DNA of 64,000 nt, from NCBI GenBank assembly GCA_032718475.1, contig JAUCBJ010002054.1, forward strand, positions 10,877 to 74,876, given 5' to 3'. Under the pieces are notes generated by a model. It did no database searches, was not told where the DNA came from, and saw only the letters and a list, made by a program, of their open reading frames with translations. Made by a program: the position numbers and the translations under genes. Shown in pieces: positions 1-45,112 of the stretch (positions within the stretch are counted from its first letter, which is position 1; every line of letters starts with the position of its first letter). This DNA comes from Nemertoderma westbladi (taxonomy: Eukaryota > Animalia > Xenacoelomorpha).

Positions 1-1516
1 TCTCTAAGAAGATATCGAACTTAGACAACCCCATTCTCTGCGAGAGTTTTGGATGGACGTATCCAGCTACGGGCGGAGGAAAATCAGCTCGAGGAGAAGC
101 ATATCGAAACGGCGGATACCCCGACCATAATCCTACACCTTCTGATGCAATCATATTGCACCCTTCACCCAGGATTTATAGCCCTCCTAGTAAAGTGGCT
201 CGCCCCAAAGAGAAAAGGACTCTTGCTAGCCTCAAAAAACTGCGTAAACGCCGTCTGCGTAAGAAAGACTAACTGTTTAGAGTATCTTTATATTTTAGAA
301 ACTGTGATTTGTTATATTTTATAGACTTAAATCCCATTTTCTGGGAGCGGTGTAAAAGCTTTTGCGTAATTAGCCGGTTATTTTCCCCGTAAAGTACTCT
401 GTAGTTGGTTTACTGGGCATAAAAAGGCCGTGTCCTTACTGTACTGGTGTTTTAGAGGACATAAAAGCCATTTCTTCTGTATTTGTACTTTAGAGGACAT
501 AATCCGCAATTTCGGGACGCAATAAGCTCGATACTCTTGAAAACAGTGTCGCTACCATGACGACGGCTAACAGCTGATATTGCCACGTCGACATTTCTTT
601 GTTTCTTTGTTCTCTCGTTGTTCGGTCGACCAATCAGAGCGTTTTTTGTCTCTGTGTTGGAGGTGGATACAGAAATTCAGGAATTCAGTGTTATGTTTTT
701 GCCCAGAGCCTAAGAACACCGGCTTTTGGCACCTCCGTGTTTCAGTCTTTAGTCTTACATTAGTAGGCTTAATTATAGAACGTATATCTGTTATCGAGTT
801 AACGAGTTACCTTATCAATGCTTACTAAACATATCATGCATATCTTACTTAACATTACTGCTTTTGCTGTCGGTTATTCATTATATTTGTTGATGGAAGA
901 TTATATTTGGAATACTGATCAATAGTCAGACACCCAACCTTCTTGATATACTAAAGGTTAGAGAGACCGGTTACAGATAAACGATTGCGACCTATGTTAA
1001 GTGGTTTGAAGTGAATCTAATGCTATTTTATAGGCCCTACATGTATTGTCTGTTATTCTCTTTGTATGTGACTAAAATTAGTGAAGGTCGGCAGATTGGT
1101 GTGCAGCATTGTGCAGCATTGTGTATGATTGTGACTGATAACAAAGCATCTCCTAAAGAATGCGCCATATACGTGAATCTATAGCCATCTCATTGCGTCT
1201 GGTTTAAGTCATAACTCTGTTTACATATTTAGAGCGCCACGTCCTAAAGGAACTGTTAATATTTCCCGAAAGTGAATAATATTTGTCAGAGATTATATAT
1301 TGCGATCAGTCGAATAATACAGTAGGCTTACACCATCAATCATTAAGCTTCCGAATTCAGTCTCCCGGGTATATCCAGCGGGTGAATGATTGCACATAGA
1401 CTGGCTTCGGCTAATCTAGTGTATCAAATACTCGTCATAGGCTAAAGACTATCTATCATCTAGAAGACATCCTAATTTGGCAGGTTAAACTGTCAAAGGT
1501 CTTAAAAGCGCAAACA
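1..1516 (+). mobile_element. 3' end of a diverged family-A BEL/Pao LTR retrotransposon (3' internal region, PPT, 3' LTR)
   Basis: 1-350 aligns to 28129-28478 of element A; same PPT TTTTCTGGGAGCGG (337-350) followed by TGTAAAAG; LTR ends ...AAAGCGCAAACA at 1516, like the family-A LTR end. Confidence 0.85.
351..1516 (+). repeat. LTR (diverged subfamily of family A)
   Basis: TGT...ACA termini; colinear with 17063-18298 (e.g. AGAGCGCCACGTCCTAAAGGAACTGTTAATAT shared) but with many substitutions and indels. Confidence 0.85.
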
Positions 1517-3111: not shown

Positions 3112-6100
3112 CTGTAAAATATTGTAGTCTATTGTAATAGGCCCACTGTAATATTGTAACAAACCTCATTATTTTTTACCAATCAGTACATCCATCCATC
3201 CACTGTAATATTGTAACAAACCTCATTATTTTTCAACCAATCAGTACATCCCTTCTTTGTACTACTGTAACAAACCTCATTATTCTTTGACCTATTAGTA
3301 CATCCCTCCACTGTAATACTGTTACAAACCCCTTTCTATTTTGACCAATCAGTACAATAGTACATCCCTTGTAAAACTGTAACAAACCTCCTTATCGTTT
3401 GAGCAATCAAACCATCTTTCCATTCCAAAGTATTTGGGTTAACTTCACCGTATAGCTCATTAAGTTGCACGCATTTGGGATTAATAACAACACAGTCAAC
3501 GTGTCCCTTCTTTCTAGAATGCTGAAACGGAAAATAATATTTTGGATGGGACCAGCTTTTCTATTTTAGAAATTTCGATTGGAATTTTTCGTTTTACATG
3601 TTGGTTTTAATTTATATGTACGTAATACATATATTAATTAATTAATGTTAGTCATTAGGGTGTAATAATATTACAACACACAAATACAATATCAGACATA
3701 ATGTAACTTTTTTGCATTAAGAGCTTTCGCATAATTTTGTATAAAGTGTTGAACATGTTGGATCAGTTTTTTCGAGTTTGATACTCACTCAACATAATTG
3801 CACTATTCACAAATTCATGCAATTATTGTTACACAAAAACTTTAATTGGCCATCATATTATTTTAATAACAAATTAAATCATTCGTTAAATTATCTTACC
3901 TTTTTTAATGTAGAATAATGAAAGCTGAAAGAAATAAAACTATTCATGTGGGTAGACTTACTAAATGGGCCAATGTTTCTGAGCTGTCGTCGGCAGTGAC
4001 TGCCGGTAGGAATGTTAACGCCCGTTGTAGAATTGTTCGCACTGTGGACTTGCCACCACATGTAGGCCCAACCATCATGATACCGTGGCGAACCAATATC
4101 TGACTGTACAACTGCTTCACTTTATCTTTCTGAGTTTTCCATTCTTCTAGACGTAGATCATGTATAGCTAGGTCGATCGCTTTCTATATTGAATACATTA
4201 GGAATAAAAACTTCCGTCTGAAATAGGTTCTTAATTGCAATATAAGTATTATATTATTTACGCGGCTATATAATTAGTATTAGTAATTATATAACAAAGC
4301 GGCGAAAAAAAAAAAATAATCAATAATAATGAAATAAAATAAAATAAAAAACTTAAAGTATAAATAAATCAATTGCGACCTTTGCTTAATTTCAGTATAA
4401 CTGTCATTACTAATTATCCTTCAATACCGGTAGCTACGCTATCACCCGTGTAGCACTGACGTCTAATTCTTATTTCTCCGACGGGTTTCGTAGTGTAGTG
4501 GTTATCACATCTGCCTAACACGCAGAAGGTCCTGGGTTCGAGACCCAGCGAAACCATTGGTTATAATTTTGTATCGAGACAATACATGTTTTGTTCACAC
4601 GTTTTTGTTGTTAACAGGTCGTTTTAAAAAAAATATTATTTTATTATGTATATAAAAAAATTAATTACATTTAAATAAATGATATAAATCTTTAAAGACG
4701 TACATCTAATAAAGTTGTCTCCTCCAAAGGAATGTCGACTCCCGGAAACAAATCATCCATGATTCTGTCCATAAGAACCACATCGTCAGCTATCATCTTT
4801 GGTACATTGCTTTCTCTAAGGGCCTTGATCAATAAATGCACCTCGTCTACCCCTTTGTCGCCTCGCGATTTCGCTTTCAGTTGCCCGGCTAATACCAGAA
4901 CGCTCTTTACCGATCTCATCCCAAAGTCGTAGTGATCCTAAGTAAAACATAAGCGTTTCCTCATTATTATTATTATTCAGGTATCGTTTGAGCATAATTC
5001 TCAGTAATTTTCGAGTCATTATTTTGATAATGACAACTTTTGCTGTTTCATTTAAAAGGTATATGACTTTAAATAATATATATTTATTTAATTTAAGTAG
5101 GGCCTAGGGTAAATAAATACATTTATATCAACCTGACCAATACAACGCCGCAATATTACTGATAATATTTACATTCTAGAACTAATGAACAATTATTTAC
5201 AGATGTTATTATTATTAATTTCTACTCTATTTCCGATACTACACCTTTTACAATTACGATTTAGTATTATTGTTCTAATAGGCCTAATATTCAATATAAT
5301 TGCGGAAACTAAGTACTTAATAACTATAACAATGTTTATTGTCAATATTATTCAGAATTACTACTACTACTAGGTCGAGCGAACTCGGACAGTGGAAATG
5401 AGATCCTTTCAGGCTTCCCGATTCTGCATAGTTGTAGCAATTTCGTTTCTGCCAAGTTCAGTATCCCTTTCAAGTTGATCTATATATGTTATGGTCGGTC
5501 GTCCACGACTACGCTTTCCATGAGTTGGTTGCCAGAGAAGTAGATCTGGTATGACCTCGTCTTTACTTCGCCAGCAGTGTCCACTGAATCTTAATCTGCG
5601 TTCAAGGAGGTGGTTGATACAGGTGGTATTGTACCATAAAGCTCGGCGTTGGTCATGTGTTGTCTCCAGCTGATGTTTAGGGCTGCCCTTAGTAGTCTTG
5701 TGTAGCAACCATCAATTCGGTAAGCAATTTTGTTATTGTCTCACACCGTAATATCCTTGATTCATAATATTAATGAATATTCATTGCTTGCATGAACTTC
5801 AAACAGGAAATATGAAAAGCCTGCAGAATCAGTGGTTCTCTTAATCTCCATAATCCCATAGTTATCTCTCGAATCGTGAATAACAATTTTAAATTCAACT
5901 AAATTTTTAAACTCCGCGCAGAGACAGGTTTATCAATCTAAAAATGTGCTCACCTTATTTACCATGTCCAAGGTGTATCTATTAATATTATAATATATAT
6001 TTTATTAATAAAATCATTTATACCAACTCACTTGTTTGGATAGTTGATTGCTCGCCAGATGGTAGAGATTTACGTATAATATTTATTTTATTAATAAACT

Positions 6101-12598: not shown

Positions 12599-13191
12599 GT
12601 TTGTACATTATGTATATTTGTTACTAGTATTCAAGTCCATAAAATGTCTTTATCCTAAAACTGTTCATAGGTTAATGATTAAGTCGCACAGTCAGCACAT
12701 CGCAGCTCCTCAACTCCCACTATAGTGCTGTACTGCACAACATGTACAGCATTTTGTTTACAGTACCTACATTACAACTACCTTACAAACAGGTTGTCAG
12801 TAGTAATGTACCACGATTGGTTGGGTCAGCAGTAACATTACTTACATTGTATAGTATACAGTAGGTTGTAGGAGGCAAATAATGAGTGAAAGATGATCTT
12901 TGAAGTTTCTGTATGGCTCAGTGCCGGAAACAAATAACATAGAGCTACAACTGAAGTGCATGAAATGGTAAGCCACGCCTCATAATTGCGATATATATTC
13001 CTATCCATATATCCAGAATATTTATATCATTTTCATGCGTTAAAAATACGATATTACTTTAATATACAGTATTTTATTTGACAGAAATAAATATTGGATT
13101 TCTTACAAACACACATACTGAATTGGACATTCTACCATTGGAGGTTTTATGGTGCTGAATAATTATTAACTGCCGGTAAAATACTTTAAAA

Positions 13192-13749
13192 ATGGCTGAA
13201 ATAGAGATGTCTAGGGGAGAATTTGCCATGTTGTGGTTCGCCATACTAAATATGTTGGTTTTAATGGTAACCTACCTATTCGTTATTGCACGACTTTCGG
13301 ACCTTGACGAAAATTCAATGCACAACTCGTCTGCAGTCCGTCGAATCAATAGGTTAGCCGATTACCAGGTGATATCGCATGCTCTGGTGCTGATTGGTCT
13401 AGCGGTCTATAAGCGCTATTGGCTTCTACTGGTTAACAGCCCCGTCTTCGTTTGGGAACTATACGAACTGTGGTCTGTTCCAAAGCGTAATCATGGACCT
13501 TACTCCACATTCAACCTTACAGAAGATCGCATTCTAACCTACATGCGAAACAACGCAATAAAGTTGGTATTTTCTATTGTAATTCTCGTTGTCTACATAT
13601 GCTGTCTCATTTTGGATACTGGCCACGGAAATGCGCTGAATCACGCTGCCTTTATCCACGACTACTACGGCGGAATCAGTCATCATAGGTTCCAAGAAAA
13701 CCCAGGGGATACTGAACATTTGAAGATTCTTCAACCATCTGTTAAATAA
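13192..13749 (+). CDS. Cornichon family protein (divergent CNIH4-like), intronless ORF
   Basis: Hydrophobic helices with the cornichon pattern LSDL..., LLLVNSPV..W..Y....VP..N.G.Y, M....IKL.F; ~40-aa C-terminal extension. Confidence 0.8.
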   Translation: MAEIEMSRGEFAMLWFAILNMLVLMVTYLFVIARLSDLDENSMHNSSAVRRINRLADYQVISHALVLIGLAVYKRYWLLLVNSPVFVWELYELWSVPKRNHGPYSTFNLTEDRILTYMRNNAIKLVFSIVILVVYICCLILDTGHGNALNHAAFIHDYYGGISHHRFQENPGDTEHLKILQPSVK

Positions 13750-14079: not shown

Positions 14080-17062
14080 GTGTATCCTTGTCTGTGCCGC
14101 TATAATGAACCGGATACACCCCATGTTCCCATATACTTGGCTGCAGGGGTATATGGCCTGGCCAGGCAGATGGTGATCTACCAATGGCTGGTCCGGAGTG
14201 CAGTGTTCTCATGTCCACTCTGAGTGCACTTCACTGCGACCTGCACCTGGCAGCAGGGGTACAGGGCATGACCCAGCAGATGAGCTGCACAGCCAATGGT
14301 GGGTCATGTGCGCCAGAGTAGATATGGGTGATGGGCCTCAATCTGACTCCACTGCGACACCCACCTTGTGGAATGGCAAACCCAGGGTGTGGTATTTGCC
14401 CCGAGAGCTGACTCGGCAAAAAAGCACCCCCCAACCCCCACTATGTAATACATTAGTAATGCGGAGGTCCAGCCACTAGAGGCCAGTGGAATGACTGGAT
14501 GGACACAATCGGCCTCACGGGCGTCAGTTATCTCCTAACAGGCTGCCTGTCTCACCACCTACTGGAGAGAGAGCGGCAAACGATTCTTTGAGTCCCTTTC
14601 CTGATGACCTTTCTGGCCCAAACCCTGGGTCACCAGGGAGGCCAGATTGTGAGGGGCAGAGGGATTCTGGAGTTGGAGGCTACTCTCATGTTCCACCCTG
14701 ACCAACAAAGCCATTGGTGAATCTGAGGCAAGTCACTAGACTAGCCTCAGTACACACCCTAACACTCGGGTCCCCAATGCGACAAGGTGAGCTGACTGCC
14801 TTGGCAGATAAGCTTTCTCTTAGTGCAGTGGGTGTTCAAGAGCACCGAATGCAGACTGGACAGACTGATGAGGTTCTGATTAAGGACATGGGGGCGGTTG
14901 GCGACTCGCCCTCGCTTCAGCAGATGATAGTGGCAATGGTGAAATTTGTCTATTGATGAATCCAACTGCACATGCAGCATTGGACAAAATAGACCAAATC
15001 TCTAACCGCATCATCCGTTGCCACTTCTCATGTTCTGGAAGACTAGCTAAGAAGTTTCCTAAGGTGGTTCTGATTGTGTGCTACTCTACAACTAGTGTTG
15101 CCCCTGTAGAGAAGGTGGAAAATTTCTACCAGAATCTACAAGCAGCTACTGATGGAGTGGATCAGCATGCATTCTTAACATTCCTGGGAGAGTTTAATGC
15201 ATTTCTGCATCAATCACCTACATCGCCCTGGGTCTATAGCAATAGTGTTAACCGAAATTCCGTCCATCTTCAGGATTTTATCTCTGGAAATGGATTGTTT
15301 TCGGCTGGAACCCAATTCAAGAAGCGAACTGGAAAGCTATGGACTCATAGTGGACCCAGTGGTCACAAGTCCCAGATAGACCATATCCTGTTTCGTAGGA
15401 AATACAGGAGCTCTATACAAGACTGTAATGCATTTACACTACGACCCTTCTCCAGTGATCACCGCCTTATTGTGGCCAAGGTAAGACTTAGTCTGCGTGC
15501 TAGAAGAACGACGAAATCTGCCTTGCCGCGGCATGACTGGTCCTCTCTGTTGCAACAGCCAAGTGTGAGATCCAGCTTCACACTACAGCTGAGCAACAGG
15601 TATGAGGTTCTTGCCTCTGAGGCGGCAGATCACTGTGAGGGCTATACTGCCTTCAGCCAGGCAGTAAGTTAGCAGCTGCAGAAACAGTTCCTGTATACCC
15701 CCGAAACAGGAAACGGGCCCCCTGGACTGACAACAAAATTCAGAAGTGCCGAAATAACTTCTACAAGGCGCAGAAAGAGTCCCGACTCAAACAGACTACA
15801 GCGGCCAAGAATGCAGTTAAGGCTGCATCTAGGTCCCTGAACAGGCAGTACTCTGTTAATTTAAAGGAGCTAATAAACCAACAGGTTGATGCCATCAATG
15901 ATGCTGACGACAGCAGGCAATCACCCTATGCATGGAGATCGATCAACTTGCTTGATGGTCGAAAAAGCCAACCAACCACCAAGGTTAAGGCTGAATCACA
16001 AGCCGATCGCCTCAATGGTTGGAAGGCCCACTTTGAAAAGCTCCTCAATAATGACAGGGTATTGCCTGATAACTTTATAGAAGTAAAAGTGTCTGAGTCT
16101 GTACTCCCAGATATTCCCATTGGTGATATCTCCTTTGCAGAAGTGAAGGCTGCTGCAAAGAGCATTAAGACCAATCATGCCAGTGGAGTAGATGGTGTTC
16201 CCCCTGAGGTCTTTAAAATACCTGAGTGTTTAAAGCTTATCTATCCCATCATAGTAGACATGTACCGAACAACAAGAGTCCCACAAGAAATGAAAACAAA
16301 TAAGTTGGTGCCAGTTCCCAAGAAGGGCAATCTAACACTCTATGGTTCTTTTCGGGGAATCTCATTGATCTCGATTGCTGCAAAGCTATACAATATAATT
16401 CTATTAAATCGCATCAGGGATCCCATTGAGAGACTGCTCCGTTGAAATCAGAATGGGTTCTGTAAAGGTCGTGGGACCATGGAGGCTCACGTATGTTCAG
16501 CATACTTTCATTATATGGGATTCCTGATGAAATTATTGCAGCAATCCGATCAGTATACGATGGTTCGATAACATTTGTGTCTACTGTTGACAGTGACACA
16601 GAACCATTTGAAGTGTTATGGGGCGTCCTCCAGGGAGACACACTTGCACCATTCTTGTTCATAATTATTGTTGACTATGTTCTACGCATGTCCTTAGATC
16701 ATCATAATGATGATGGGGTGATGATAACTCCACCCACTGGCTCCAGAAGTCGAGGAAATTCTACCAAGTACCTAACTGATCTAGACTTTGCTGATGACTT
16801 AGGAGTACTCTCAGAATCACTAGAGGGAGCCCAACGGCTCCTCAGCTCATTAGAACATGCTGCTTCTAGTGTTGGTCTTTTTATTAACTCCAGAAAGACC
16901 AAACTTTTGACAGTTAACTTTGAAAGTCCTCAGCAAGTCTCTGATCGGATGAGCATAAGCTCAAAAGATGGTATGCTTGAGCATGTGGATGACTACTGTT
17001 ACCTGGGATCATGGATCCGGAAGTCAGGTGAGGATCTTCGTATACGTAAGGGAAAGGCATGG
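14080..17062 (+). mobile_element. RTE-like non-LTR retrotransposon, 5' part (APE endonuclease + RT), degraded
   Basis: VGVQEHR, LGEFNA, SQIDHIL, SSDHRL endonuclease motifs; KASGVDG-like, FRGISL, GVLQGDTLAPFLF, DFADD RT motifs; stops and frameshifts; 5' boundary approximate. Confidence 0.9.
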
Positions 17063-18298
17063 TGTAAAAGCCTTTGCTGAATTGCCCCGTTATTTTTATT
17101 ATCTTTTACATTAAAATACTCTGTAGTTGATTTAATAAGTGTAAGAGACCGTATTATTGCTGTATCGGTGTTTTTAGAGGATCTAAGACCTATTTCCTCC
17201 GTATGTGTACTGTGAAAGGCATATTTTATGATTCTATGGCAATTCGTGACGCAAAGGGGTGATAGCTACTCTTGAACAGTAGTTACTATGACTACGGTTA
17301 ACAGCTGACATTCATACGTGTTGATTTCCTTTGTTCTACGGCGTCTCTCAGTTCAGTCAGCCAATTAGAGCGTTTTTGTGGCTCCTTGTACAGAAAATTT
17401 CCGAGAAATGACGCAATGCCTATGTGCAGTGTTTACATTCAGTCCTGAGCCAAAGAAAGAACGGCTTGGAAGTATTTTGTGCTTTACTGTTTTAGCCGTA
17501 CACTAGTAGGCTTAATCATAAGGACATATATCCGTTATCTAACTTGACTAACCTAACTCAATGCAATCAATGCATACTGCAGTACTGCATACACTGCATA
17601 CTGTGTAACACTGTGCATACTTTATATTGTTATACTGCTATTTGCTGTCTGTACTTCATAATTTGGTTGATGAATTATTATATTTGGAATAACGATAAAT
17701 AACCCCGAAAACCCAATATTCTTGATATACTGAAGGTAAGAGAGAAAGGTTATACATAACGATTGTGACTTATGTTAAAGTGGTTTGAAGTGAATCTAAT
17801 GTTATTTGATAGACCCTACATGAGTCAGTCCGTGTTCCTTTTATATGTAACTAAAATCAGTGAAGATCGGCAGATCAGTGTGCAGTATTGTGCAGCATTG
17901 TGTGCGGGTGATACTGATAACGAAGCATTTCCTAAAGAATGCGCCATATATGTGAATTATAACTAAGCCATATCGTTGTGATTAGTTTAAGTCATAACTC
18001 TGTTTATATAGATAGAGCGCCACGTCCTAAAGGAACTGTTAATATTCCCCGAAAGTGAATAATATTGTCAGAGATTATATAATACTGTCAGTCGAATAAT
18101 ACATTAAGCTTACATAGCACTAAAATTAAGCCGTCGAACCCAATCTCCCGGGAATTATCCAGCGGGTGAATGATCGCGCACAGATTGGTTTCGACTAGTG
18201 TAGTGAATCAAATATTTGTCATCGGCTAAAGTGATTTATTATCTAACAGACATCCTAATTTGGCGGGTTAAACTGCCAAAGGTCTGAAAGCGCGAACA
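17063..18298 (+). repeat. Element A 5' LTR
   Basis: TGTAAAAG...GCGCGAACA; only two differences from the 3' LTR seen by eye. Confidence 0.95.
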
Positions 18299-18583
18299 AT
18301 AACGGATATTGCTTCTTTATTGCAGTAGGCAATAAAGCTGAAGTACCGGCAACCGGTACCCAGTAGGCCTGACTACCTAACCACCCGGACCGGTACCTAC
18401 AGCAGTACAGGTACAGCAGTATTATTCGATTTTGATAATTATATACCGGTAGGCCTTAATAATTAATCAGGGAGGGCCCGCCCTGGTTTTTTATTGAGAT
18501 TTTTACTTATTTCTGTCAAGTTTTATTTGTTTGTAGGCCAGTATTGAACAGAAGGCGTGTAAGCCTGATCAGATTGTACAGAC

Positions 18584-19152
18584 AATTTGTAGGCTGAGCT
18601 GTTGTCTGATTGCTGTTAAGTCTGAACGGATTGCAGTGTGTGTAGATCACCTGTCCGATTAAGTACGATTAGGCAGTAGGGGCAGCGAACGCTGTAAGGT
18701 AAACCCCCAACTAAAGAATAAGTCGCACTACTGGGTTAGAGCGCATACTCCCTAATCATTTCGGAGTCTGCATGTCCTGTAGTTTATTTAGGCTTGAGAG
18801 TAGTCTGCCATCGTTTGGTCTGTACTTTGTTTGTGTAAGTCTGTACGGGTAGCGTATAATTTTATTTAGATAATTTGTAGGCTGGATAGTTGTCTGGCTG
18901 TTATTAGGTCTGAACGGATTGCCGCGTGTGTAGATCATCTGTCCGATTAAGTACGGTTAGGCAGTAGGGGCAGCGAACGCTGTAAGGTAAACCCCCAACT
19001 AAAGAATAAGTCGCACTACTGGGTTAGAGCGCATACTCCCTAATCATTTCGGAGTCTGCATATACCGTAGTTTGTTTAGGCTTGATAGTAGTCTGTCAGT
19101 GTTCGGTCTGTATTTTGTTTGAGTAGTTTGTACGCGTAGCGTAATATTTATT
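18584..19152 (+). repeat. 288-bp tandem duplication in the family-A 5' UTR
   Basis: AAACCCCCAACTAAAGAATAAGTCGCAC at 18701 and 18989; also present in copy B (~60145-60715). Confidence 0.85.
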
Positions 19153-20467
19153 ATTCAGAGTTTATGCGATTATCCGCAACATTCATTCCCCAAGTTTGTT
19201 CCTACAGTAATTGTGTTTGTTATACATACCGCTATAGTTAAATTAACCCCGGTACTACACGGGCTGCTCGGCGTAGGTAAAGACTGGTGATTTTGTGCAT
19301 CGGTCACTCCAGCAGATGCCGTGGTTCTTTTAGCTGTTCAAGTATATTTAACTACTGATTATCTGTTATATAAGTACTCGTACCTAATTTAGGGTTTAGT
19401 GTACAGTACTTTCCGAAGTAATTATTGTAGACATTATATCTGTGTTGTAAAGTGGTTGATAGGCACATTCGATTAGCTCTATTAACTTCTAGGTAGGAAC
19501 ACTCCGTGATACATAACGTAGAACCTATAGCGATACGGCTATAGGTCGTCAGGCGGTGGTATTTTCCTATCTAGACAACGCAGTGTATTTACTACTACTT
19601 ATTATTTCAAATACCGTAGTACCCTGTCCGTTGTAATAACCGGTTATCTAACCCTTTGTTAGGCTGGTTTGTAGACTTCTTGTAAAATTACCCTAAAAAT
19701 TCGTATTTTGTGTTTTTGTAAATTTTTGTGTTTATTTAGAGATTGTAATCTCACCCGAATTGTACGTAATTTGTAGTATTAAGTAACTTAGGTAAATTAG
19801 AATTATTTGTTTTAGTGTCCTATACGTAACACTTCACTAAAAGCGCACCGCTTTGTGTAGTGATTACCCCAGAAATAATAACATTTATTTCAAACATTGA
19901 CTAAACCCATTAAAACGGGTATAAATACATTATAAATCAAATCTAACGATTTATAAATAGTAGGCCTACCATAAAACCATTAGGTCTCAATATCAGTTGG
20001 ATTACTGCTTAAATAACGGTAATAAAGTAAGTTAAAGTAACCAAGTAACCCTAAAGTTCAGAAATTCAATTATTCTAAAATAATTGATATACCGGTATTT
20101 ACGATAGGCCTATTATCTTATTTCTATAAATCTAGGCTGAAATTATACCGGTACTTGTAATTAATTCTATTCCAGAATTATATATACTACAAACTGTAAG
20201 CTGTATACCGGTATTCCGATAGGCCTATTATATATTTATATATATTTGTGCTAAAATTATACCGGTATTCTGTGATAAACATAGTCTGTAATAATACTTA
20301 TATAGTTATATATACTATAAGTATACCGGTATTCTAATATATTATATATATCACGCTACACTGAGTAGCAGTACCGGTAATTAATTACTAGGCTAGCAGT
20401 TAATACTGAGTTATTAGACTTACTCAGACTGTAATACAGCAGTAGACATTCAACGGTATACATAGTC

Positions 20468-23400
20468 ATGTCTGATACTAAGCAGAACCTGTCAGACAGT
20501 TTATTAGATGTAACTATCTGCGACTCAGATAGAGACGTACAACCGTCTGGTCGTAAATCCAGTTCACCTCCCACTGTGAGGAAGGTCATCCCTCCAGTAG
20601 TAATAACAGAACCTAGGCTGGTCCAACATCGTAGGTCTATCATAGGCACTCGAGCTCAGGTCAAGCGGGACCAAAAGGCAGCGGAACAGCAACAACCCGC
20701 TAGTCAAGAACTTATTCCTCAGCGGCCCAGCAGCTCCAGTAGTGAGGATACTGTAGAGCTGACACCCGAGCGCGGAGCAGAGATGACGGATGCGGTTTAT
20801 ACGGATCCCCTTCTCATCCTTCCTGCAGCCGTGCTCGCTGGGTTATTGATCGCGGTGGAAGAACACCAGATCGATTGGGCGAGAAGTCAACGGTCAACTA
20901 GAGATAGTTACGCGGGATACACGAGTGAAGAACTGAAGTCTATTGTCGAGTCGCAATGGAACTTCCCCGGACCCGGACTCCCGTTTGATTTATCAGAAGC
21001 TGCCTGGGAAGACATACACCGGATGGGAGTAGCCAAGGAAACCATCGATCCAGCTGTATGGAAGAGGTCCGCAGCCGGATACGCCCAGGGATTCTTCAGC
21101 TCTATGGAGCGAGTAGAGAGACAACTGTTTCAACAACCTCAAGGACCTCAAGAGCAGGGATCGCTGCTTTATCAAGTTAGAGAAAGAGTTTTGCGGATTA
21201 GGCTAATCTTATCCGCCTTTGAGGAGGCTTCTAAAAGAAGACAAGACACGTCGTTGCAAGTTGCCGTAAAGACTTGGTTTCAAAGGGTGAATCTCCAAGT
21301 TCAAGGAACAGCTCAGTGGAAAGCTCAGCTAGAGGAGCGATCAAACCATGGAGAATCAACAGACGCCACTTTTTCCCAAGTGGAAAGTGAAGCGACGGCA
21401 GAGAAACCACATAAGAGGGATGCCATTGACATCTATCTGTCAGACTATCAGCGTTTTTTAGGTGATGACGAGTTGAGGAGAAGGTTAGAGGGACTTAGCC
21501 CTAATAGCGAAGGAACCAAGCTTGTGTTGGATGCCATCGATGTGGAAATGAGGGCTGCGAATCAGGCTAAATTTGATGAACAACTCCGCCTGACACGAGT
21601 CCAAGAAGAACAAGTAAAGAAAAAACGTATAGAAGACAGAAAGAAAGCAGCAGTGGTAGCTGCAGAAGCAGAAAGAAAATTGGCAGCGGCAGAGGCAGCA
21701 GCAGAGGCAAAAGCGGCAGCGGCAGCGGCAGAGGCAAAGGCGGCAGAGGCAGCAGCAGAGGCAAAAGCGGCAGCGGCAGCGGCAGAGGCAAAGGCGGCAG
21801 AGGCAGCGGCAGAGGCAGAGGCAAAGGCGGCAGAGGCAGCAGCAGAAGCAAAGGCGACCTTGGCAGAAGCAGCAGCTGAAAGAAAGGCGGTAGAGGCAGT
21901 GGCAGAAGCAGAACGGAGAGCGACTGAAGAAACCACCCAGTTAGAATTGGAAAACATTCAGGAGAATCAAGACTGCATAAATAAACAGTTAACGGCTAGC
22001 AATATGCAGATGATGGATCGATCTACTCCCAAAAGACAGGGATATACATCATCGGAGGAAGGCGATACCACCGATACTGAAGGCAAAGGAAATAGATCTC
22101 GTCTAAGCAGACGTAAAAGAACATTCCACCGTCAGAAATTGCCTGATTTGCCTCCAGCTGTTAGAAGGCAACTAAATAACACCAACTTAGGTAGTACAGA
22201 GCCCACAGACCAAATAATTAAAATAGAAAGACTCCCTACTATAGTAGATGAGCCTGAAATAATTAGGCCTGTTCTTGAAATCACCCCATCGGTAATAGAT
22301 ACACCTGTGCTCCCTGAAGCTACCTATAAATTCCCTCTGCATAGCACTAAGCTACCTGTGCCCCGTAGAACTGCCCCAGAGACAGTTCAGGTCCTGGACC
22401 CCGAGCGAAATATTCATAATTTGTCGCCCGTTGTCCCTCGTCCGCCCGCTACAACGTTGGCGACTCCCGCTTCGGCGGTCGAATGGGTGGACGAGAGACG
22501 GCGGGGGATGGATATCCTGCTCGGGCAGATGCAGGAGACTGTCCAGCAATTCAAGGGCACAGTAAGGGAAAGTAGGCTAGAGTTGCAAGAAGTGCAGCAA
22601 AGTATCGCGCTTGAACGCGATAAATTAGTAAATACCCAAAAGGGTATACCACCACCCTCTGTAACAATGTGTCAACCTGTTAGGTCTGAAGTATTGCATG
22701 CGCAAGGTGTGGAGCCTACACGCATATATACTGCTAGCGAAGTAGAAACTCCTATAGTGAACCCTATTAAGGGTAATTATAGACCTGTTGATAATGATAT
22801 TCCCTATAGAACTGATCATAATCCGAGAAATTTATATACCGATAACTCGATATTAAATAGCACGATGGCCCAAGAAAGTTTTACGCGTCAAATGGCTAGA
22901 ACCGAAGCCCGGCAAGCGGTAAAGGTTGGAGAGATCGTTAAGTTCAATGGAGATGAGATGAAATGGTTACCTTTTAATGAATATTACAAAGATAACATAC
23001 AGAACTCTGTACTATCTAATGGAGAAAAACTTAGATACCTCATCGAGTGCTTGGAAGGATCTCCCAAGTTAATGGCGTTAAGGTTTATTGGACATCCAGA
23101 CGGATTAAGACAAGTTTGGGATACACTAAACATCAGGTATGGTAATAGGAATAACATAGCTGGGTATTTGTATGCAAAGTTGGTAGCGCCCCGAAAGTTT
23201 ATTAGCAGCGGGATTATAGAGTTTTCCGATGAAATTCAGGAGATCTGCAGACAATTAGATTGGCTAGGTAAGTCTCATGAGTATCAGAGTGCTATGGTTA
23301 TTAGAGCAGTGGCTTCTACTTTACCGAAGGGTGGAGTAGGTACACGCTGGGATAAGAAAGTGTTATATATGATGGAACAACAACGACGAGACCCTACCAT

Positions 23401-25513
23401 GGCTGATCTCATGTCATTCTTAGATGGAGAAGTGAAATTACAGCTCCTAAGGCAGTCCAGAGAGAAGACATTGGAAAACAAGGTAAGTGAGAAACCCGTT
23501 TCTAGGAGAAGGGTAATACCAGTATGTTATACCGACGACGGTGAAAGCCAAACTTCTCAAGGAGAGGACAGCGGGAAAGACACTGACAGATCTTATGTCA
23601 ATAAAATGCCTAAAGATCAGGTAAGTAAATCCAAGTCTCGACCCAATGACAGAAGGGAACCGGTACAAAAAACCCCTCCTACGTCTCCTAAAAGAATTCA
23701 GGTGAGAAAGCCCGAGGAAAGAACAAGTGTGCACCACATAGCACATGTTAAAGTAAGTAACATCAAGCCCAAATGTGTGCTGTGCGACGGGCCCCACCGT
23801 TTAAATGCGTGTGATAAATTCCTGAGGAAATCACTAAAGGATAGACGTGAAGTCATGTGGGATAAGCGGTTGTGTTATAATTGCCTCAGACGAGGACACC
23901 AACGGCGAACCTGTAACTCCGACGCAAGGTGTGCAAAGTGCGGCGCAAAACATCATATCTTGTTGCACACGGAATTCGAACGAAACAGCCCGAGTCAGGT
24001 AAGTGAGTCCGAACTACATGTCCAATTCAGTGATGTGAACGACACTGATCAATCTGAGATGGAAGGATTCTATACGGACGAGTTCTCCGACCAAAACGAA
24101 TCCTGTTACCTAATAAACACCACCGCAGTGTATCGAGCACTCGTGTATGAGAAAGACACAGACAGCGACCTTACCTTAACTACTTCCGATCAACAACCAT
24201 CTTGGAAAGCGCCAACTTCCAATATAGGAATCCGAGAATTTCCTGTAGTCCAGTTACGGGTCCACGGACCTCAGAAGAGCTATATAGTGAACGCCCTCCT
24301 GGACTCCGGTAGCACAGGAACATTCATCGATAAAGAACTAGCCGAAGTCATCTTTGCTGGACAACCCAAGTTCCGAACCAAGCTAAACATGTCAGGGATC
24401 ATGCAGGTTTGGAATTCTACTGTAGCTGCCGACTATTATATAGGTGAGTTGTCCACCCCACAGGATAAACTAGGAGAATACAGTATAAGGTCAGTGAAAA
24501 TGGTGGCTATAAAGAACTTCGCTACTACTCAAGCAGACCTTTATAATTGGGACGAGGATGAGAGCATCCAACATCTTAACATACCTCGATTCCAGACTGA
24601 TTATCCTGGAGTGCAAATACTCATCGGCCAAAACGCGCATGAGGCGCTGGAGACATTAGAGAAACGACCTGCTCAACCGCAGCCACTACAGACCTATGCG
24701 GTAAGAACTAGAGTAGGTTGGTACCTTACTGGACCTTCCCGTAGAACGCTCAGGGAAAGACTGCTTCAAGATCGCGTCTGCCAGGTGAGTGAATGGGAAG
24801 ATGATACTAGTGAGGGAGACGACCCAACTGAGGGAACACCACACTCCTCAGATAATGACAATCTTAGCTCCAATGTAGATCAATGGAGATATTGCCCCAA
24901 GAAGTTTAATCCAACGGACATCGCTTCCAGAGGAGCAACTCCTCAAGAACTGACAGATACTATAGACCGGTTAGGTGAACCCGACTTCCTGAGTAAGGAG
25001 AATGAATGGCCTCCCCATCTTACTCCGACTGAGATTAGACCAGCCAAGGGAGCGGAGAAAGTCGAACCTGAAACCCGGACGGGTGGATCGGAGTTATTTG
25101 AACCCGGGATAGATCTGTCGGTATTACATGTTGCCAGGGACGACGCCGTGGATCTGGGCCTCCCCACCGCGAGTGGATCCTTCATGAAGATCAGAGAGAG
25201 CGATTGGAGCTCTGGAACATCAGACGTCTCGCAGGGACTCTCACCTCTCCTGCAGAGAGCGACGGACCACTATAGCTCCTGGAATCGGCTTTGTGACGCC
25301 GTCATATACTTTGAGCGATGTTTCTATCGTCACTATTCCAGGACGAAGAGGAAACCTGGAATTGTATTCAGGATGCAGCGACTCAATCACCCAGTCGGTC
25401 GTTTGTGTTTATCGGAAGGGAATGGAGGACTCTCCGGAAACTGTGGAAGGCAAGATTCTCTTCCCACGACCACCTCCCTAATCCTTCAAACATCTAGGGA
25501 CTCCATAACGTAA
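20468..25513 (+). CDS. BEL/Pao Gag-protease polyprotein lacking RT and integrase (1681 aa)
   Basis: Coiled-coil EAAAEAK repeats; DUF1759-like KFNGD..W..F...EKLRYL..CLEG; zinc knuckles CVLC..H...C, CYNC...GH....C, CAKC...HHILLH; protease LLDSGSTGTFI; RNase H tail QWRYCP...NPTDIASRG; no YxDD or integrase core. Confidence 0.9.
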   Translation: MSDTKQNLSDSLLDVTICDSDRDVQPSGRKSSSPPTVRKVIPPVVITEPRLVQHRRSIIGTRAQVKRDQKAAEQQQPASQELIPQRPSSSSSEDTVELTPERGAEMTDAVYTDPLLILPAAVLAGLLIAVEEHQIDWARSQRSTRDSYAGYTSEELKSIVESQWNFPGPGLPFDLSEAAWEDIHRMGVAKETIDPAVWKRSAAGYAQGFFSSMERVERQLFQQPQGPQEQGSLLYQVRERVLRIRLILSAFEEASKRRQDTSLQVAVKTWFQRVNLQVQGTAQWKAQLEERSNHGESTDATFSQVESEATAEKPHKRDAIDIYLSDYQRFLGDDELRRRLEGLSPNSEGTKLVLDAIDVEMRAANQAKFDEQLRLTRVQEEQVKKKRIEDRKKAAVVAAEAERKLAAAEAAAEAKAAAAAAEAKAAEAAAEAKAAAAAAEAKAAEAAAEAEAKAAEAAAEAKATLAEAAAERKAVEAVAEAERRATEETTQLELENIQENQDCINKQLTASNMQMMDRSTPKRQGYTSSEEGDTTDTEGKGNRSRLSRRKRTFHRQKLPDLPPAVRRQLNNTNLGSTEPTDQIIKIERLPTIVDEPEIIRPVLEITPSVIDTPVLPEATYKFPLHSTKLPVPRRTAPETVQVLDPERNIHNLSPVVPRPPATTLATPASAVEWVDERRRGMDILLGQMQETVQQFKGTVRESRLELQEVQQSIALERDKLVNTQKGIPPPSVTMCQPVRSEVLHAQGVEPTRIYTASEVETPIVNPIKGNYRPVDNDIPYRTDHNPRNLYTDNSILNSTMAQESFTRQMARTEARQAVKVGEIVKFNGDEMKWLPFNEYYKDNIQNSVLSNGEKLRYLIECLEGSPKLMALRFIGHPDGLRQVWDTLNIRYGNRNNIAGYLYAKLVAPRKFISSGIIEFSDEIQEICRQLDWLGKSHEYQSAMVIRAVASTLPKGGVGTRWDKKVLYMMEQQRRDPTMADLMSFLDGEVKLQLLRQSREKTLENKVSEKPVSRRRVIPVCYTDDGESQTSQGEDSGKDTDRSYVNKMPKDQVSKSKSRPNDRREPVQKTPPTSPKRIQVRKPEERTSVHHIAHVKVSNIKPKCVLCDGPHRLNACDKFLRKSLKDRREVMWDKRLCYNCLRRGHQRRTCNSDARCAKCGAKHHILLHTEFERNSPSQVSESELHVQFSDVNDTDQSEMEGFYTDEFSDQNESCYLINTTAVYRALVYEKDTDSDLTLTTSDQQPSWKAPTSNIGIREFPVVQLRVHGPQKSYIVNALLDSGSTGTFIDKELAEVIFAGQPKFRTKLNMSGIMQVWNSTVAADYYIGELSTPQDKLGEYSIRSVKMVAIKNFATTQADLYNWDEDESIQHLNIPRFQTDYPGVQILIGQNAHEALETLEKRPAQPQPLQTYAVRTRVGWYLTGPSRRTLRERLLQDRVCQVSEWEDDTSEGDDPTEGTPHSSDNDNLSSNVDQWRYCPKKFNPTDIASRGATPQELTDTIDRLGEPDFLSKENEWPPHLTPTEIRPAKGAEKVEPETRTGGSELFEPGIDLSVLHVARDDAVDLGLPTASGSFMKIRESDWSSGTSDVSQGLSPLLQRATDHYSSWNRLCDAVIYFERCFYRHYSRTKRKPGIVFRMQRLNHPVGRLCLSEGNGGLSGNCGRQDSLPTTTSLILQTSRDSIT

Positions 25514-28478
25514 CAACATATGGAGTGGGTGTGTGACTCTATTATTTTATATTATTTTATTATTTTTATATTTATGTATGTATTACTATGTAATTCTATT
25601 ATAATCGTTTTCTTTAATTTTATTCAGTAGAATGTTATTTTAGCGATTATTTAGTAGATTAGTGCAATATATTCGTGTTTATTACGTACGTAATTACTTA
25701 TATTATATTTAGTGAGACGGCGAAGAAATAATTATTTTTCTCTTTCCTTACTGTCCGTATTATATTATAAATACGTAACTACAGTAAGATGAAATGTCCG
25801 TACTTATTAAAGTACAATAAAGCCACTACTATATTTAAGTATTATTGGTAGGCAGAGTATTAGGAATGCAAAGTTCAGATCCTCGTGTCTCGGCTAAACC
25901 AAGCTCTGGGTAGACCTTGGAAACGACTTGCCTCTTCACACTGACATTGCTTCGTGCGATATTGCTCTCATACCGTATATTAAATAATACATATAGTAGC
26001 GTGATGTCCCTTTAACAGTAGCGTATAACGCAGAATAAATCTGTTAAACCCTTTGACCATCTGTAATTCTAGTCGATTAAGATATCGCGGCACCCACCGA
26101 TATACTTGAAAGACAAATTCTAGAATCAGTGGTTAACGTCCCCAGACAAGTTCTGGAATAAATCGGTGCCCATCTCAAATATTAATTATTTAATATTTGC
26201 AAATCTAATAAATCAAAATCTGTAAAATTCAGATCCTTCAACAATTCTAGTCAATTAAGATATCGTAGCATTTACCGATATTCTTAAAAAAGACAATTGT
26301 CATAGAATTAAGGATCTTGTGTCCCTAGACATGTTCTAGAATCAAAATATGTCCATTTAATTATCAAATAATAAAATTTCAGGGAATAAATTTAAATTCA
26401 TGCCTTTTAATGAATTTAATAAATTGCCATTTTACGCAATTTATAAAGTTCCCAAAATTCCATTAATTAATAGATCAAGGGAGCGGAGATTTATCTTATC
26501 ATGCGTATGAGAGTGTGAAAGTCTCCCAAACATAGTCAATAGCCGATAAAATTCATAAAGTCATGTATAAAACAGAACATTGACTATTAAAGAATACTAT
26601 TAAATAACATCCCAGATCTGTATGCATTGGAATTACTCTAATTCTACCGCTAGCTTTGCATAATGTCACCATAGCAACAACCACGCTAGAATTAGAATTG
26701 AGTTAAAAGAACAATAGAAAGCTTGTACCATTGAATAGCATAGGGAATAAATAGCGCACTACTAGTATCCAAGGATACATAATAATACAGTGACATTCTG
26801 GAAGGCATTGACTAACGGACAAATGGCCCGAATGTGTGTAATTTGTGACAAGTTGTGTGTGTGGTATTTGTGAGTTTATAGGTGAATGTTACTGCTAAGG
26901 TGTGTTTACAGTAGCCAGTCGCAATCGTAAAGTAACCTAACTCTCCAAGGAATACCTGAAGTACATCTAAGCCTTTGGGACGGACAGTCGAGTGACTTGT
27001 GCCGGTTGTCGTTGTCGTTGTGCGGCTACGTCGTTGGCGAAAGTACGGCGGCGACGACACATCGGCGCTGAGGATCTCGTCCTGTCCGGGGGTTGATTGG
27101 GGTAGGCAGCGACGCCCGCTCGCCTAAATATAAACTCCTTATAATGTGGATAAACTCATATATAGCAGAAATGACGGAGTTGATAGAAGATGGTCTTGGT
27201 ATCGGGGAGCGATATACTCTACTTTTACAAGCGTTTGTTGATAGCTTAATACGCGGCGACATATACGCAGCGTAATGGTACGTATATGGGCTTCTTAACT
27301 ACTGGTCATTCTATCAATTTACACAATACGGACTATGTCGACTATATATCCTGCCCAGCGGAGTCGGAACCATAAACTGAAATTCGAATGCGAAAATTCT
27401 ATTCGAAATCGGCTCGAAAGAAAAGACATTAAAGAAACAAATAAACGCGGTAACTCCAACATATATTTGGAATTCTTGATAGAAGCATTGTAACAACAAT
27501 TAAATATCATCCGCGTTTCCCCTACCAGACGTGCGTCTTTGGTATTATTACGGTAAATGCCCTAGATCCAGCCAATAAACGGAAAGACATAAACATCCAC
27601 GGAAACGTTGTGATAAACACAGTTGTGTTCGTTATATTTACTGGAGTTTCGAGCGAAACTTGTTTGACGTATCACCTATGCTCACTCGGCTCTAACGATC
27701 CTAGAGTAAACCTACGATCAGAGTCCCGGAATACTCGGTCAAACCTCCTCATTCCTTAGTTGGACCTCAGACCTGCGATCCTGGTGGTGTCGCGGATCCT
27801 CTTGGACGGTATTCACTGTTCAAGATCTAGTGCTACCCTAACAATTAATCGGTAACACTCCGACAGTGATTTCTAGCTAGCCGCCCATCTTACCTAGCTG
27901 GATTATGACGCAGACACCTAATATCACTATCCAACCGTATGGTCGTCCCGTTTAACGCGATACAACCCTTCATCAAGGTGAAGGAGAGCGTTGTACGAAA
28001 CGAGTTAAACGCTATTTTATAAAGATCAAAAAAGAAACCTGCGTTTGTTCAGATAAACGTAAGTTATCACAGTAAGTCCAATCGATAAACGAATTGGCCT
28101 TATCTCAGTTCGATTGGGAAACCTCGAATCTCTAAGAAGATATCAAGCTTAGAAAACCCTATTCTCTGCGAGAGTTTTGGACGAACGTATCCCATGACAA
28201 GCGGAGGAAAATCAGCTCGAGGAGAAGCATATCGAAATGGACGAGACACCGACAGTAAACCCAAACCTTCTAATGCAATCATATTGCACCCTTCACCCAG
28301 GAGTTATGGCCCTCCTAGTAAAGTGGTTCCCCCCAAAGAGAAAAGGACTCTTGCTAGCTTTAAAAAACTGCGTAAACGCCGTCCGCGCAAGAAAGACTAA
28401 CTGTTTAGAGTATCTTTAGGTTTTAGAAACTGTGATTTTTATATTTTATAGACTGAAAATCCCATTTTCTGGGAGCGG

Positions 28479-29714
28479 TGTAAAAGCCTTTGCTGAATTG
28501 CCCCGTTATTTTTATTATCTTTTACATTAAAATACTCTGTAGTTGATTTAATAAGTGTAAGAGACCGTATTATTGCTGTATCGGTGTTTTTAGAGGATCT
28601 AAGACCTATTTCCTCCGTATGTGTACTGTGAAAGGCATATTTTATGATTCTATGGCAATTCGTGACGCAAAGGGGTGATAGCTACTCTTGAACAGTAGTT
28701 ACTATGACTACGGTTAACAGCTGACATTCATACGTGTTGATTTCCTTTGTTCTACGGCGTCTCTCAGTTCAGTCAGCCAATTAGAGCGTTTTTGTGGCTC
28801 CTTGTACAGAAAATTTCCGAGAAATGACGCAATGCCTATGTGCAGTGTTTACATTCAGTCCTGAGCCAAAGAAAGAACGGCTTGGAAGTATTTTGTGCTT
28901 TACTGTTTTAGCCGTACACTAGTAGGCTTAATCATAAGGACATATATCCGTTATCTAACTTGACTAACCTAACTCAATGCAATCAATGCATACTGCAGTA
29001 CTGCATACACTGCATACTGTGTAACACTGTGCATACTTTATATTGTTATACTGCTATTTGCTGTCTGTACTTCATAATTTGGTTGATGAATTATTATATT
29101 TGGAATAACGATAAATAACCCCGAAAACCCAATATTCTTGATATACTGAAGGTAAGAGAGAAAGGTTATACATAACGATTGTGACTTATGTTAAAGTGGT
29201 TTGAAGTGAATCTAATGTTATTTGATAGCCCCTACATGAGTCAGTCCGTGTTCCTTTTATATGTAACTAAAATCAGTGAAGATCGGCAGATCAGTGTGCA
29301 GTATTGTGCAGCATTGTGTGCGGGTGATACTGATAACGAAGCATTTCCTAAAGAATGCGCCATATATGTGAATTATAACTAAGCCATATCGTTGTGATTA
29401 GTTTAAGTCATAACTCTGTTTATATAGATAGAGCGCCACGTCCTAAAGGAACTGTTAATATTCCCCGAAAGTGAATAATATTGTCAGAGATTATATAATA
29501 CTGTCAGTCGAATAATACATTAAGCTTACATAGCAATAAAATTAAGCCGTCGAACCCAATCTCCCGGGAATTATCCAGCGGGTGAATGATCGCGCACAGA
29601 TTGGTTTCGACTAGTGTAGTGAATCAAATATTTGTCATCGGCTAAAGTGATTTATTATCTAACAGACATCCTAATTTGGCGGGTTAAACTGCCAAAGGTC
29701 TGAAAGCGCGAACA
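28479..29714 (+). repeat. Element A 3' LTR
   Basis: Preceded by PPT; near-identical to 17063-18298. Confidence 0.95.
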
Positions 29715-29719
29715 CATGG

Positions 29720-32900: not shown

Positions 32901-34384
32901 TGTTAAACTCTGTACGTACTGCAGTAGCAATACAGGAAAAAACTCATTTATTTTGTGCCAATACATTTCTACCTAAACGGGTGGCCCTTCTAAATTGATT
33001 TAGATACTGTTCAGTTATGCGCATGCGCCAGGCCCATTCCATGTAGGTGATAAGAAGGGCGCTGTGATTGGCCATTTATCTGTTTGCTGGACGAATAAGA
33101 AAGCTAGTAGCTTCTCATATCCAAGTAAAAACCGGTTTACTGAATTTTATGCAATGTCAACGAGAACTTACTGGAACCGGTAAAAACCAGTTTTGTTATT
33201 ATATGGTTGCAAAACAGACCTATATTTTTTTTTACTCTTTAAGATTTTATATTGAATTTTGTTTCAGATTATTGTATTGAATTTATCTTATATCCAAGTT
33301 CTGATTTTTGTACCGTTAAATGTATTCGTACCTATAGATATGTATTAACCCAATTATTTGTTTGTGTTGGTAATTTTGCAAATCAGTATGCGATAAAGAC
33401 ATCCAGCGATCGGTTCGGAATTAAAACCCCATTGTTTTAACATGAGAGGCGCATTCTCCGTCTAATATAATTATGGAGTGAGGAGGTCGAGCCGTACCGG
33501 CCGACTGCAGGAGCCCAAAATGGATGGATGATGTTACACAACACGAGTGAAACATAAGTAAGTTCGTCTGGGCAAGCCACAAGGGGAGGGGGGTCTCATT
33601 AGGTTGATGTACACAATTCCATTAGGTTAACTGGTGCTTTAACTATTTCCTGTACTTGGGTTTGGGCCAAATTAAACCGGGATACCCCATCATAATAAAC
33701 ACACAGGCAGCACGGAAGTGCAAAGGGGGGAGAGTGTTGATATATATTTGGTATCAGTGCTCATCGTTTTGGCTTAGGTTTGGGTCTCATTGGGATACTA
33801 ATATTCATTTCACTTCATCTTAAATTATTTTGACTTTGTTGGGGGTGAGTAAGCTTATATACCAAGTTTCAGCTACAGCATTATCCACAGTCCAGAAATA
33901 AATGTATTTGGGTATTTAGATAGCTAATCATCTCTCTCTCACAATCATTAGTTTGACACTCTTACAGTTACTTTACAGAGTAGAAGTGAAAATTAGAGAA
34001 TATCGGCAATTGATCCACGAGATAACCAGGTTTAGTATTGCGTATAGTTTCCTTCCTTTTACTACCGTCGACAGCGGTGCGGTGTATAGAAATATACAGA
34101 ATTTGTTATAGCGGGAAAATTTAAGATAAATTGTTATTTATATTTGTTTGTTTATAAATTGTACTCGATACAACCCTTACCTATCGGCAGTTTAGCTTGC
34201 AGTATACGTGGTGGATAAGGGGCCATCACGCTAGTAAATTGTATTAAAGGTTGATAATATTAGCAGGCAGGCAGGGATTCCCCACCAACTGGAGTTTCCT
34301 TGTTGAGCTTTATATAGACCGGTTTATTGTTTTGTTTTCTTTAGAAACTGATACGTATTGCGATAATTTGATACGTATTCTACA
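32901..34384 (+). repeat. Element C 5' LTR (3' end inferred)
   Basis: Start fixed by the 3' LTR; end placed at ...TTCTACA because the next 12 nt are complementary to an internal LTR site; alternative end TTTAACA at 34437. Confidence 0.6.
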
Positions 34385-35177
34385 GTGGTTATTATGTTAA
34401 TAAATCTGCAATGTGCTTTAGCGAAATCTTTTTAACAAATTCTTAGCTGATTTGCGTTGTAAAAATTATAAATAAATCACAGAGTTGCTATAGCGCCGCC
34501 GTTGAGTAAAGTTTGTATCGAGTTTGAAAGTTTGTAGAGCCAAAAGGGTTGCATTATAAGATTTCTAAGAAATTAAAAAATTTCGCTCGAAATTGTTAGG
34601 ATAAAATTAGGGTAAATCTACCAGACAGCCATCTAATTCTCTAATACAACTTACAGGAACATCACTTTCGTCACCGCAACCAATCCGGGATCTGGGGACG
34701 TTTGACTTGGTACGCAAGTGAACTGATCATTCACGAGGTTGGGACGTGGGACGGCGTCGTTTAGCAGCAATCACAGGTTGGTCGTAGTGTCGATAGGATT
34801 GTGCTTGTGGGATCTATAGTTCATTTGTGGCTGTTTGAAGGTTTGTTAAAATACTTATGCACAGTATTTGTGGCATACTTGTGCATACAAAATAAATTTG
34901 GTGTTGTAATTTTTTAAGTAAAAAATTTAAATTACTTCCTTTGTTGTGTCTTATTGTCCCACCATCCAGGGTCTCCTAAAGTCGAGCCAAGGCTATATTT
35001 ATGAAATAAATAAAATATAAGAGAATTTGGAAATTATTGAGTTGTAAAAGTTGTTTTATTTGAATTCACATTTGAATTGGTGTAATAATTTGTAAACTAT
35101 TACAAGCAAAGAATTTCATTAAATTAAATTAAAATTAAAAAAAAATTTTAATCTATATAAAATATAAAATCCCAAAA

Positions 35178-45046: not shown

Positions 45047-45112
45047 AGCATGATAGCTCATTCGGTAGAGCGCCGGACTTTGAAAGTAATATGTCCAGGT
45101 TCGATTCTGTAA
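45047..45112 (+). other. tRNA-like (A-box/B-box) segment inside the element C 3' region
   Basis: TAGCTCATTCGGTAGAGCG D-arm and CAGGTTCGATTCTG T-arm, but no proper acceptor or anticodon stem. Confidence 0.5.

Follow-up and report, generated by a model that had tools for sequence, protein, structure and literature searches.

A covarying LTR/post-LTR complement in place of a tRNA primer site in a BEL/Pao-type element of Nemertoderma westbladi: a candidate for self-primed reverse transcription

The window analysed here is a stretch of 64,000 nucleotides from Nemertoderma westbladi (contig JAUCBJ010002054.1, positions 10,877 to 74,876 of the forward strand); all coordinates below are counted from its first base. 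Self-comparison and open reading frame (ORF) scans revealed an intron-split dynein gene on the minus strand and several nested elements, identifying the window as animal genome. One of these insertions, element A, splits a non-LTR element carrying a reverse transcriptase (RT) domain. Its two LTRs differ at 2 of 1236 places, and two relatives, copy B and LTR C, lie within the same window:

17063 to 18298, plus strand: 5' LTR of element A, 1236 bp, TG...CA, two differences from the 3' LTR
28479 to 29714, plus strand: 3' LTR of element A, from comparison of the LTR pair
17058 to 17062 (left) and 29715 to 29719 (right), plus strand: 5-bp target-site duplication CATGG flanking element A
28471 to 28478, plus strand: short purine-rich tract adjoining the 3' LTR, at the position of a polypurine tract (PPT)
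20435 to 25513, plus strand: ORF of element A, 1692 codons from stop to stop, with Gag, protease motif and RNase H-region remnant
58670 to 59862, plus strand: 5' LTR of copy B, which extends past the window end
351 to 1516, plus strand: LTR C, from the 3' end of a diverged relative and sharing about 73% identity with A

Over their first 382 LTR bases (17063-17444 and 58670-59051) A and B match completely, while the rest of the LTR and the leader are 90-94% alike; this points to a recent recombinant whose switch point lies some 45-85 nt ahead of the 11-base LTR motif described below. In both 2.1-kb leaders a stretch of about 290 bases is duplicated in tandem, with copies 87-89% alike (18580-19159 in A, 60141-60720 in B). 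Between the ORF and the 3' LTR of A lie some 3 kb (25513-28478) which, past the first 700 bases, gave no match to about 190 BEL/Pao proteins; the last 350 bases of this stretch are 90% alike in C.

Two other BEL/Pao elements in the window, D and E, have LTRs unlike those of A. Element D (32901-46260) belongs to another BEL/Pao family than A; its one ORF, of 2818 codons, contains Peptidase_A17, DUF5641 and DUF1759. Named relatives of D, from a nemertean and a tunicate, show about 40% identity, and the RT region of D found no match in viral contigs. The 3' LTR of D is broken off at about 46260, hence its LTR end is unplaced. Element E (46208-54371, minus strand) possesses a broken pol that is 30-40% identical to D, beyond which several ORFs without a Pfam match, one of them with Cys-His motifs, adjoin the cut LTR of D. 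Rfam and ARAGORN together returned a sole find for the window, a tRNA-Val(AAC) gene at 4484-4556 on the plus strand, opposite to the dynein gene, in one of whose introns it lies. The dynein region also contains an intronless 189-codon ORF with hydrophobic stretches (13180-13749), for which a search found no relative.

The Gag region of element A aligned to DUF1759 (E=2.6e-11) and is followed by three Cys-His knuckles at residues 1114, 1147 and 1166 of the ORF and by the protease motif LDSGS at 1289. Behind the protease lies a 54-residue RNase H-region remnant, 50% identical to the region after Peptidase_A17 in element D. All 27 relatives of the ORF contain PF03564 and/or PF05380, the Pfam families of BEL/Pao. 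These proteins, together with LTRs ending in TG...CA and a 5-bp target duplication, are shared with the Belpaoviridae. RT and integrase are absent from A, and copy B is cut by the window end; element A is thus non-autonomous and would need both enzymes in trans. Judged from Gag, protease and RNase H-region remnant rather than from an RT tree, element A is of BEL/Pao type. Membership of the Tf1/sushi group was considered and rejected, as Gag and all relatives are of BEL/Pao type and Ty3/gypsy chromovirus proteins were not among them.

The official description of BEL/Pao, the least studied of the LTR superfamilies, presupposes priming by a host tRNA. According to the ICTV, Belpaoviridae possess a site of 18 nt that matches the 3' end of tRNA-Arg or tRNA-Gly (PMC8742986). 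Unlike these, element A has no such site, and neither has copy B, although this has no bearing on descent. The first TGG after the 5' LTR is found at 18484 in A and at 60042 in B, with none within about 180 nt, so that the CCA end of a tRNA has no pairing place there. The LTR is followed directly by the complement of a motif within itself:

17528 to 17538, plus strand: candidate self-primer of element A, 11 nt, or 12 with T17527
18299 to 18310, plus strand: primer-binding position of element A, complement of the LTR 11-mer, without TGG
59137 to 59148, plus strand: candidate primer of copy B, 12 nt, two changes relative to A
59863 to 59874, plus strand: primer-binding position of copy B, with the two matching changes
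784 to 794, plus strand: candidate primer of C, ATATCTGTTAT, one change (C>T at the position of 17533)

On rechecking, the coordinates and letters that an earlier note had given for the sites of A, B and C were all correct, including the exact reverse complement between 18299-18309 and 17528-17538 in A and the 12-bp pairing of 59863-59874 with 59137-59148 in B. The spacing that it put at about 750 nt needs a small correction, to loops of 760 nt in A and 714 nt in B. The A and B sites are homologous in the LTR alignment. The complement begins at offset 0, the first base past the LTR, and disappears when the LTR edge is moved inward; this edge is placed independently of the match, by the TG...CA ends, the LTR pair and the duplication CATGG. 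As a control for chance, complements of at least 11 bases in the LTR of A were counted along the window and occurred at 2 of 10,130 positions of the interior of A and at 25 of 44,200 positions elsewhere. The single-copy chance of an 11-base match is accordingly 2-6 in 10,000. The complement behind the LTR is a real, non-random feature. An exact search of metagenome contigs with the LTR motif found no match, and in element D, whose LTR end is not placed, the best contiguous self-complement among 80 CA ends was 8 bases, so that no such pairing was seen.

Between the LTR 11-mers of A, B and C there are exactly three differences, at 17533, 17534 and 17538. Copy B carries T>A at 17538 and G>T at 17534, and both partner changes are present in its binding site. 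LTR C carries C>T at 17533 and has no binding site within the window. To these we added public contigs aligned to 18258-18345, using four of nine listed runs (run X5 being without coverage of the site) and reading depth as distinct from copy number; one run may be the source of the window itself. In runs X1 and X3, respectively, 18303 C>A accounted for 52% and 53% of depth, 18310 T>A for 83% and 79%, and 18299 A>T for 54% and 42%, the last of which may include letters of 3'-LTR flanks. A fourth difference, 18304 G>A, made up 12.5% of depth in X1 (48 contigs) and 12.0% in X3 (32 contigs) and was seen in one contig of X4; 18317 T>G is the fifth difference in a table that is incomplete (it includes records with 4-6 other letters), so that unlisted places may vary too.

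The three listed differences inside 18299-18309 are the exact complementary partners of the three LTR 11-mer differences. The change 18304 G>A was forecast beforehand from the 11-mer of C and then found in the contigs; an LTR haplotype with the 11-mer of C is also present in X1 and X3. Covariation, as the earlier note had described it, therefore stands for two linked changes between A and B and gains a third compensated position, the latter matched across short contigs that leave the two sites unlinked copy by copy; both sites lie on one molecule for A and B only. The note had further read the 11-mer of C as G-U compatible with the A site. The single change is as described, but G-U pairing is not needed, given that the Watson-Crick partner G>A exists in the family. 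Two of the compensated changes are transversions, and the terminal pair is among those compensated. A at 18310 pairs with T17527 and extends the duplex to 12 bases in most of the family (about 80% of depth); position 12 is mismatched in element A, which has 11, and in about 20% of depth. The match persists with different letters at one exact offset in lineages 73% alike.

Several further features of the LTR and leader bear on where an RNA carrying this motif might start and be cut:

17361 to 17365, plus strand: CCAAT box with a presumed promoter role, some 165 nt ahead of the 11-mer and conserved in all three LTRs
17521 to 17522, plus strand: acceptor-like AG preceded by a branch-point-like motif, 5-6 nt ahead of the 11-mer and conserved in all three LTRs
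17539 to 17625, plus strand: length-variable stretch directly behind the 11-mer, from alignment and contigs
17736 to 17812, plus strand: candidate short intron in the LTR (AAG|GTAAG ... CTAAT ... TAG), predicted, signals kept in A, B and C
18119 to 18124, plus strand: poly(A)-signal position, AATAAA in the A 3' LTR (29535) and in B (59681), one change in the A 5' LTR
18259 to 18280, plus strand: predicted hairpin near the LTR end, resembling a U5-IR; three one-sided changes in B and C keep its pairs
18316 to 18336, plus strand: predicted hairpin of 8-9 bp in the leaders of A and B, directly after the site

At 25-30 nt upstream of the 11-mer, the LTRs of A, B and C share no TATA box. Since the twelfth pair is present in some 80% of depth, an RNA beginning at 17526, or a few bases before that, would fit equally well. 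The C at 17539 is kept in all four readable haplotypes and cannot pair with the last A of the LTR. The stretch that it opens contains 39 gap positions between A and B, and 5 of 11 sequence joints in public contigs start at 17537-17544; such variability behind the 11-mer would fit the end of strong-stop DNA, without proving it. Contig depth is low at 17530-17582 and was left out of the evidence.

For the intron candidate at 17736-17812, A and B show a perfect donor together with a branch-point motif, and C near-perfect versions of both. A second candidate short intron lies at 18166-18249. No intron-less DNA form was found among the 11 joints listed from public contigs. AATAAA is absent from C; were the position at 18119 used, R would be about 620 nt and would hold the candidate intron, which must survive in genomic RNA.

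Folding predictions were then set beside these features. Cognate duplexes of -12.5 and -11.6 kcal/mol compared with -7.3 and -6.5 kcal/mol for swapped partners, about 5 kcal/mol weaker. For RNAs 739-893 nt in length, beginning 2 nt ahead of the 11-mer and ending 12-120 nt past the LTR, the predicted pair probability of the duplex was 0.73-1.0. By RNA start, it was 0.92-1.0 up to 6 nt upstream of the 11-mer, 0.88 in A and 0 in B at 48 nt upstream, and at most 0.01 at 128 nt. The predictions would thus favour an RNA start within a few bases of the 11-mer. Inclusion of 250 nt of leader reduced the duplex probability to 0, as a crossing stem between LTR and leader (18040-18102 with 18419-18546, in the folds of both A and B) wins, and forcing the duplex against it costs 10.6 (A) and 7.9 (B) kcal/mol. 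The program folds nested structures, in which both helices cannot coexist, and we treat its long-range predictions as weak evidence either way. The LTR-leader stem was not counted as support: at -35.3 against -28.3 +/- 3.6 for shuffles it lies within the shuffle range, and the three-duplex "pretzel" of Tf1 is accordingly not established here.

The core of the earlier reading (no tRNA-type site, a covarying intramolecular partner in primer geometry, a BEL/Pao family) survives these analyses. We consider it probable, at roughly two chances in three, that this family primes its minus strand in the manner of Tf1, with its own LTR 11-mer cut after 17538. From the observed pairing and compensation we infer an RNA start, a cut and priming in the following order. 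Transcription would start at or a few bases before 17528, and the RNA 5' end would fold back across the loop onto 18299-18310. The RNA would be cut between 17538 and 17539, as by RNase H in Tf1, and RT would extend the primer 3' end from the last LTR base, leaving DNA that ends at CA without a spacer. Plus-strand synthesis would copy the primer back into the binding site, such that both sites change together. This copying-back is the simplest explanation for an exact Watson-Crick compensation that includes two transversions and the terminal pair; Tf1 reportedly keeps its primer on the cDNA. The reading predicts the RNA start and the cut site to the base.

A competing explanation, which we judge improbable, is that the duplex is structural, with a role in packaging or circularisation or as a switch masking the site, and that the primer is a host RNA, for example an internal tRNA fragment that pairs with the invariant bases of the site plus those that follow. 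Covariation by itself speaks of pairing and not of priming, and the last seven bases of the LTR motif resemble the anticodon loops of tRNA-Asn and tRNA-Lys, which we counted in favour of a host-RNA primer. Counted against a tRNA fragment is a C in A and B where tRNAs generally keep U33. At positions 1 and 5, moreover, no single host RNA could pair with A as well as with B, and tRNA-Val (4484-4556), the only tRNA in the window, gives broken duplexes of -8.2 and -8.9 kcal/mol. Internal-tRNA primers do exist in Ty1/copia, as half-tRNA types (PMC6317226) and in FunCo1 (PMC5445492), going by the available text of both reports, whereas for the Belpaoviridae the ICTV names only tRNA 3' ends (PMC8742986). 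That the pairing stops exactly at the LTR edge with a compensated terminal pair would matter for a primer and less for a clamp.

Somewhat less probable again is self-priming from a longer or processed 5' end, arising from a start further upstream or from cis- or trans-splicing at the AG at 17521-17522. This AG and its branch-point-like motif, kept 5-6 nt before the 11-mer in all three LTRs, would suit such an end, as would the twelfth pair in about 80% of depth. Upstream of the AG, however, no donor scoring at least 6/8 is kept in all three LTRs, and the folding does not predict the duplex for RNAs that begin 128 nt upstream. A primer built by splicing was also sought as a candidate in its own right and rejected, no junction beating the contiguous 11-mer complement in A or B; the same search in element D yielded one 10-base match among 36 CA ends, which we took as chance.

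That the inverted match is chance or a functionless by-product of DNA-level template switching or conversion is very unlikely: rearrangements are abundant behind the 11-mer and the finding was picked from many possible motifs, but the match is kept with other letters at one offset, its single-copy chance is small (the 2-6 in 10,000 given above), and no other primer site is left in a family that has moved recently, judging by the 2 differences in 1236 LTR bases.

Compared with Tf1, the self-priming proposed for element A would span about 760 nt of loop, more than the whole LTR of Tf1, within an LTR of 1.2 kb, and element A is known from its sequence, from which the start and cut are deduced. 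The "pretzel" of Tf1 is matched in part, the U5-end hairpin being present and the LTR-leader stem falling within the shuffle range. As expected of Tf1-type self-priming, the family has a complement of at least 10 bases (11 and 12 bp, at offset 0) whose pairing is kept through two-sided changes. Tf1/sushi elements are Ty3/gypsy chromoviruses, whereas element A, with its BEL/Pao Gag, belongs to another superfamily. In the portions of the literature available, Tf1 uses an 11-base self-primer released by an RNase H cut between bases 11 and 12 (PMC7175516), and self-priming is demonstrated for Tf1 and inferred for Tf1/sushi/Tcn1 (PMC7175516, PMC10085805, PMC4600332, PMC5341516). The likeness to Tf1/Tf2 of Schizosaccharomyces pombe and to Tf1/sushi/Tcn1 consists of an LTR complement of about 11 bases directly after the CA of the 5' LTR (PMC7175516, PMC10085805, PMC4600332); as in Tf1/sushi, so far as those texts describe them, a tRNA site is lacking and a hairpin lies at the U5 end.

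The earlier note had named Tf1 and related chromoviruses as known self-primers. This is right but incomplete: self-priming has also been predicted, from sequence alone, for Ty1/copia elements of the TAR lineage (Houba, Osr-1), by a rule of at least 10 bases that start 0-5 nt behind the LTR and are complementary to it (PMC6317226, available text). The element A family gives the same result in this LTR-complement test. Unlike it, the TAR elements, as there described, are plant copia elements with another domain order, and we claim no homology of the sites. BEL/Pao would therefore be the third superfamily with self-priming rather than the second, which, if true, would point to repeated invention. 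Fungal GalEa copia elements offer a further likeness in that a self-complementary element, the Conserved Hairpin Site, replaces the tRNA site at the same place (PMC5445492); according to the part of that report available, its partner lies downstream and the authors find no LTR complement, whereas the partner in element A lies inside the LTR. In element D, at about 33748, TGGTATCAGTGC matches 10 of the 12 bases of the tRNA-Met site given for metazoan GalEa in the same available text (PMC5445492), with no CA before it.

We found no description of self-priming in BEL/Pao in the literature searched (including the available text of PMC6317226, PMC3601003 and PMC5445492), a scope that leaves aside Repbase and GyDB notes, subscription papers and bioRxiv supplements, where a prior mention is possible. 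A term search of the accessible text of the main BEL/Pao descriptions returned no mention of primers. We are likely dealing with a variant of a known mechanism, in a superfamily for which the searched literature describes no such use. If so, it would explain BEL/Pao elements annotated without a primer-binding site and would give a simple sequence test for them. An element without a tRNA primer could conceivably escape blocking by 3' tRNA fragments at the primer site. A more far-reaching picture is that self-priming without tRNA arose in a lineage of animal Belpaoviridae separately from Tf1/sushi and TAR, with the RNA 5' end folding over a loop of 760 nt that bears an intron, the primer being copied back in each cycle without mismatched intermediates, and the element thereby freed from dependence on host tRNA. 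This picture is tentative, and we would lean against it as a whole.

For comparison, we considered a distant freshwater BEL/Pao family (loci L001-L021) with 25% Gag identity, in which the LTR start was found in 12 of 21 loci. Four tested loci contained no real self-complement of at least 9 bases, the matches seen being one 9-base junction match and one end-of-string artefact. Two bases separate the presumed LTR end from a TGG; as this end is itself inferred from the sequence, the family serves as a loose control. The family, seen at L011 (12449-16480 and 1-4023) and L004 (from 9732 onward), is about 16.4 kb long and forms two subfamilies. Ahead of the presumed LTR end stands a long hairpin whose arms covary, and in a collapsed contig about 7.5 kb of non-coding sequence separates that end from gag.
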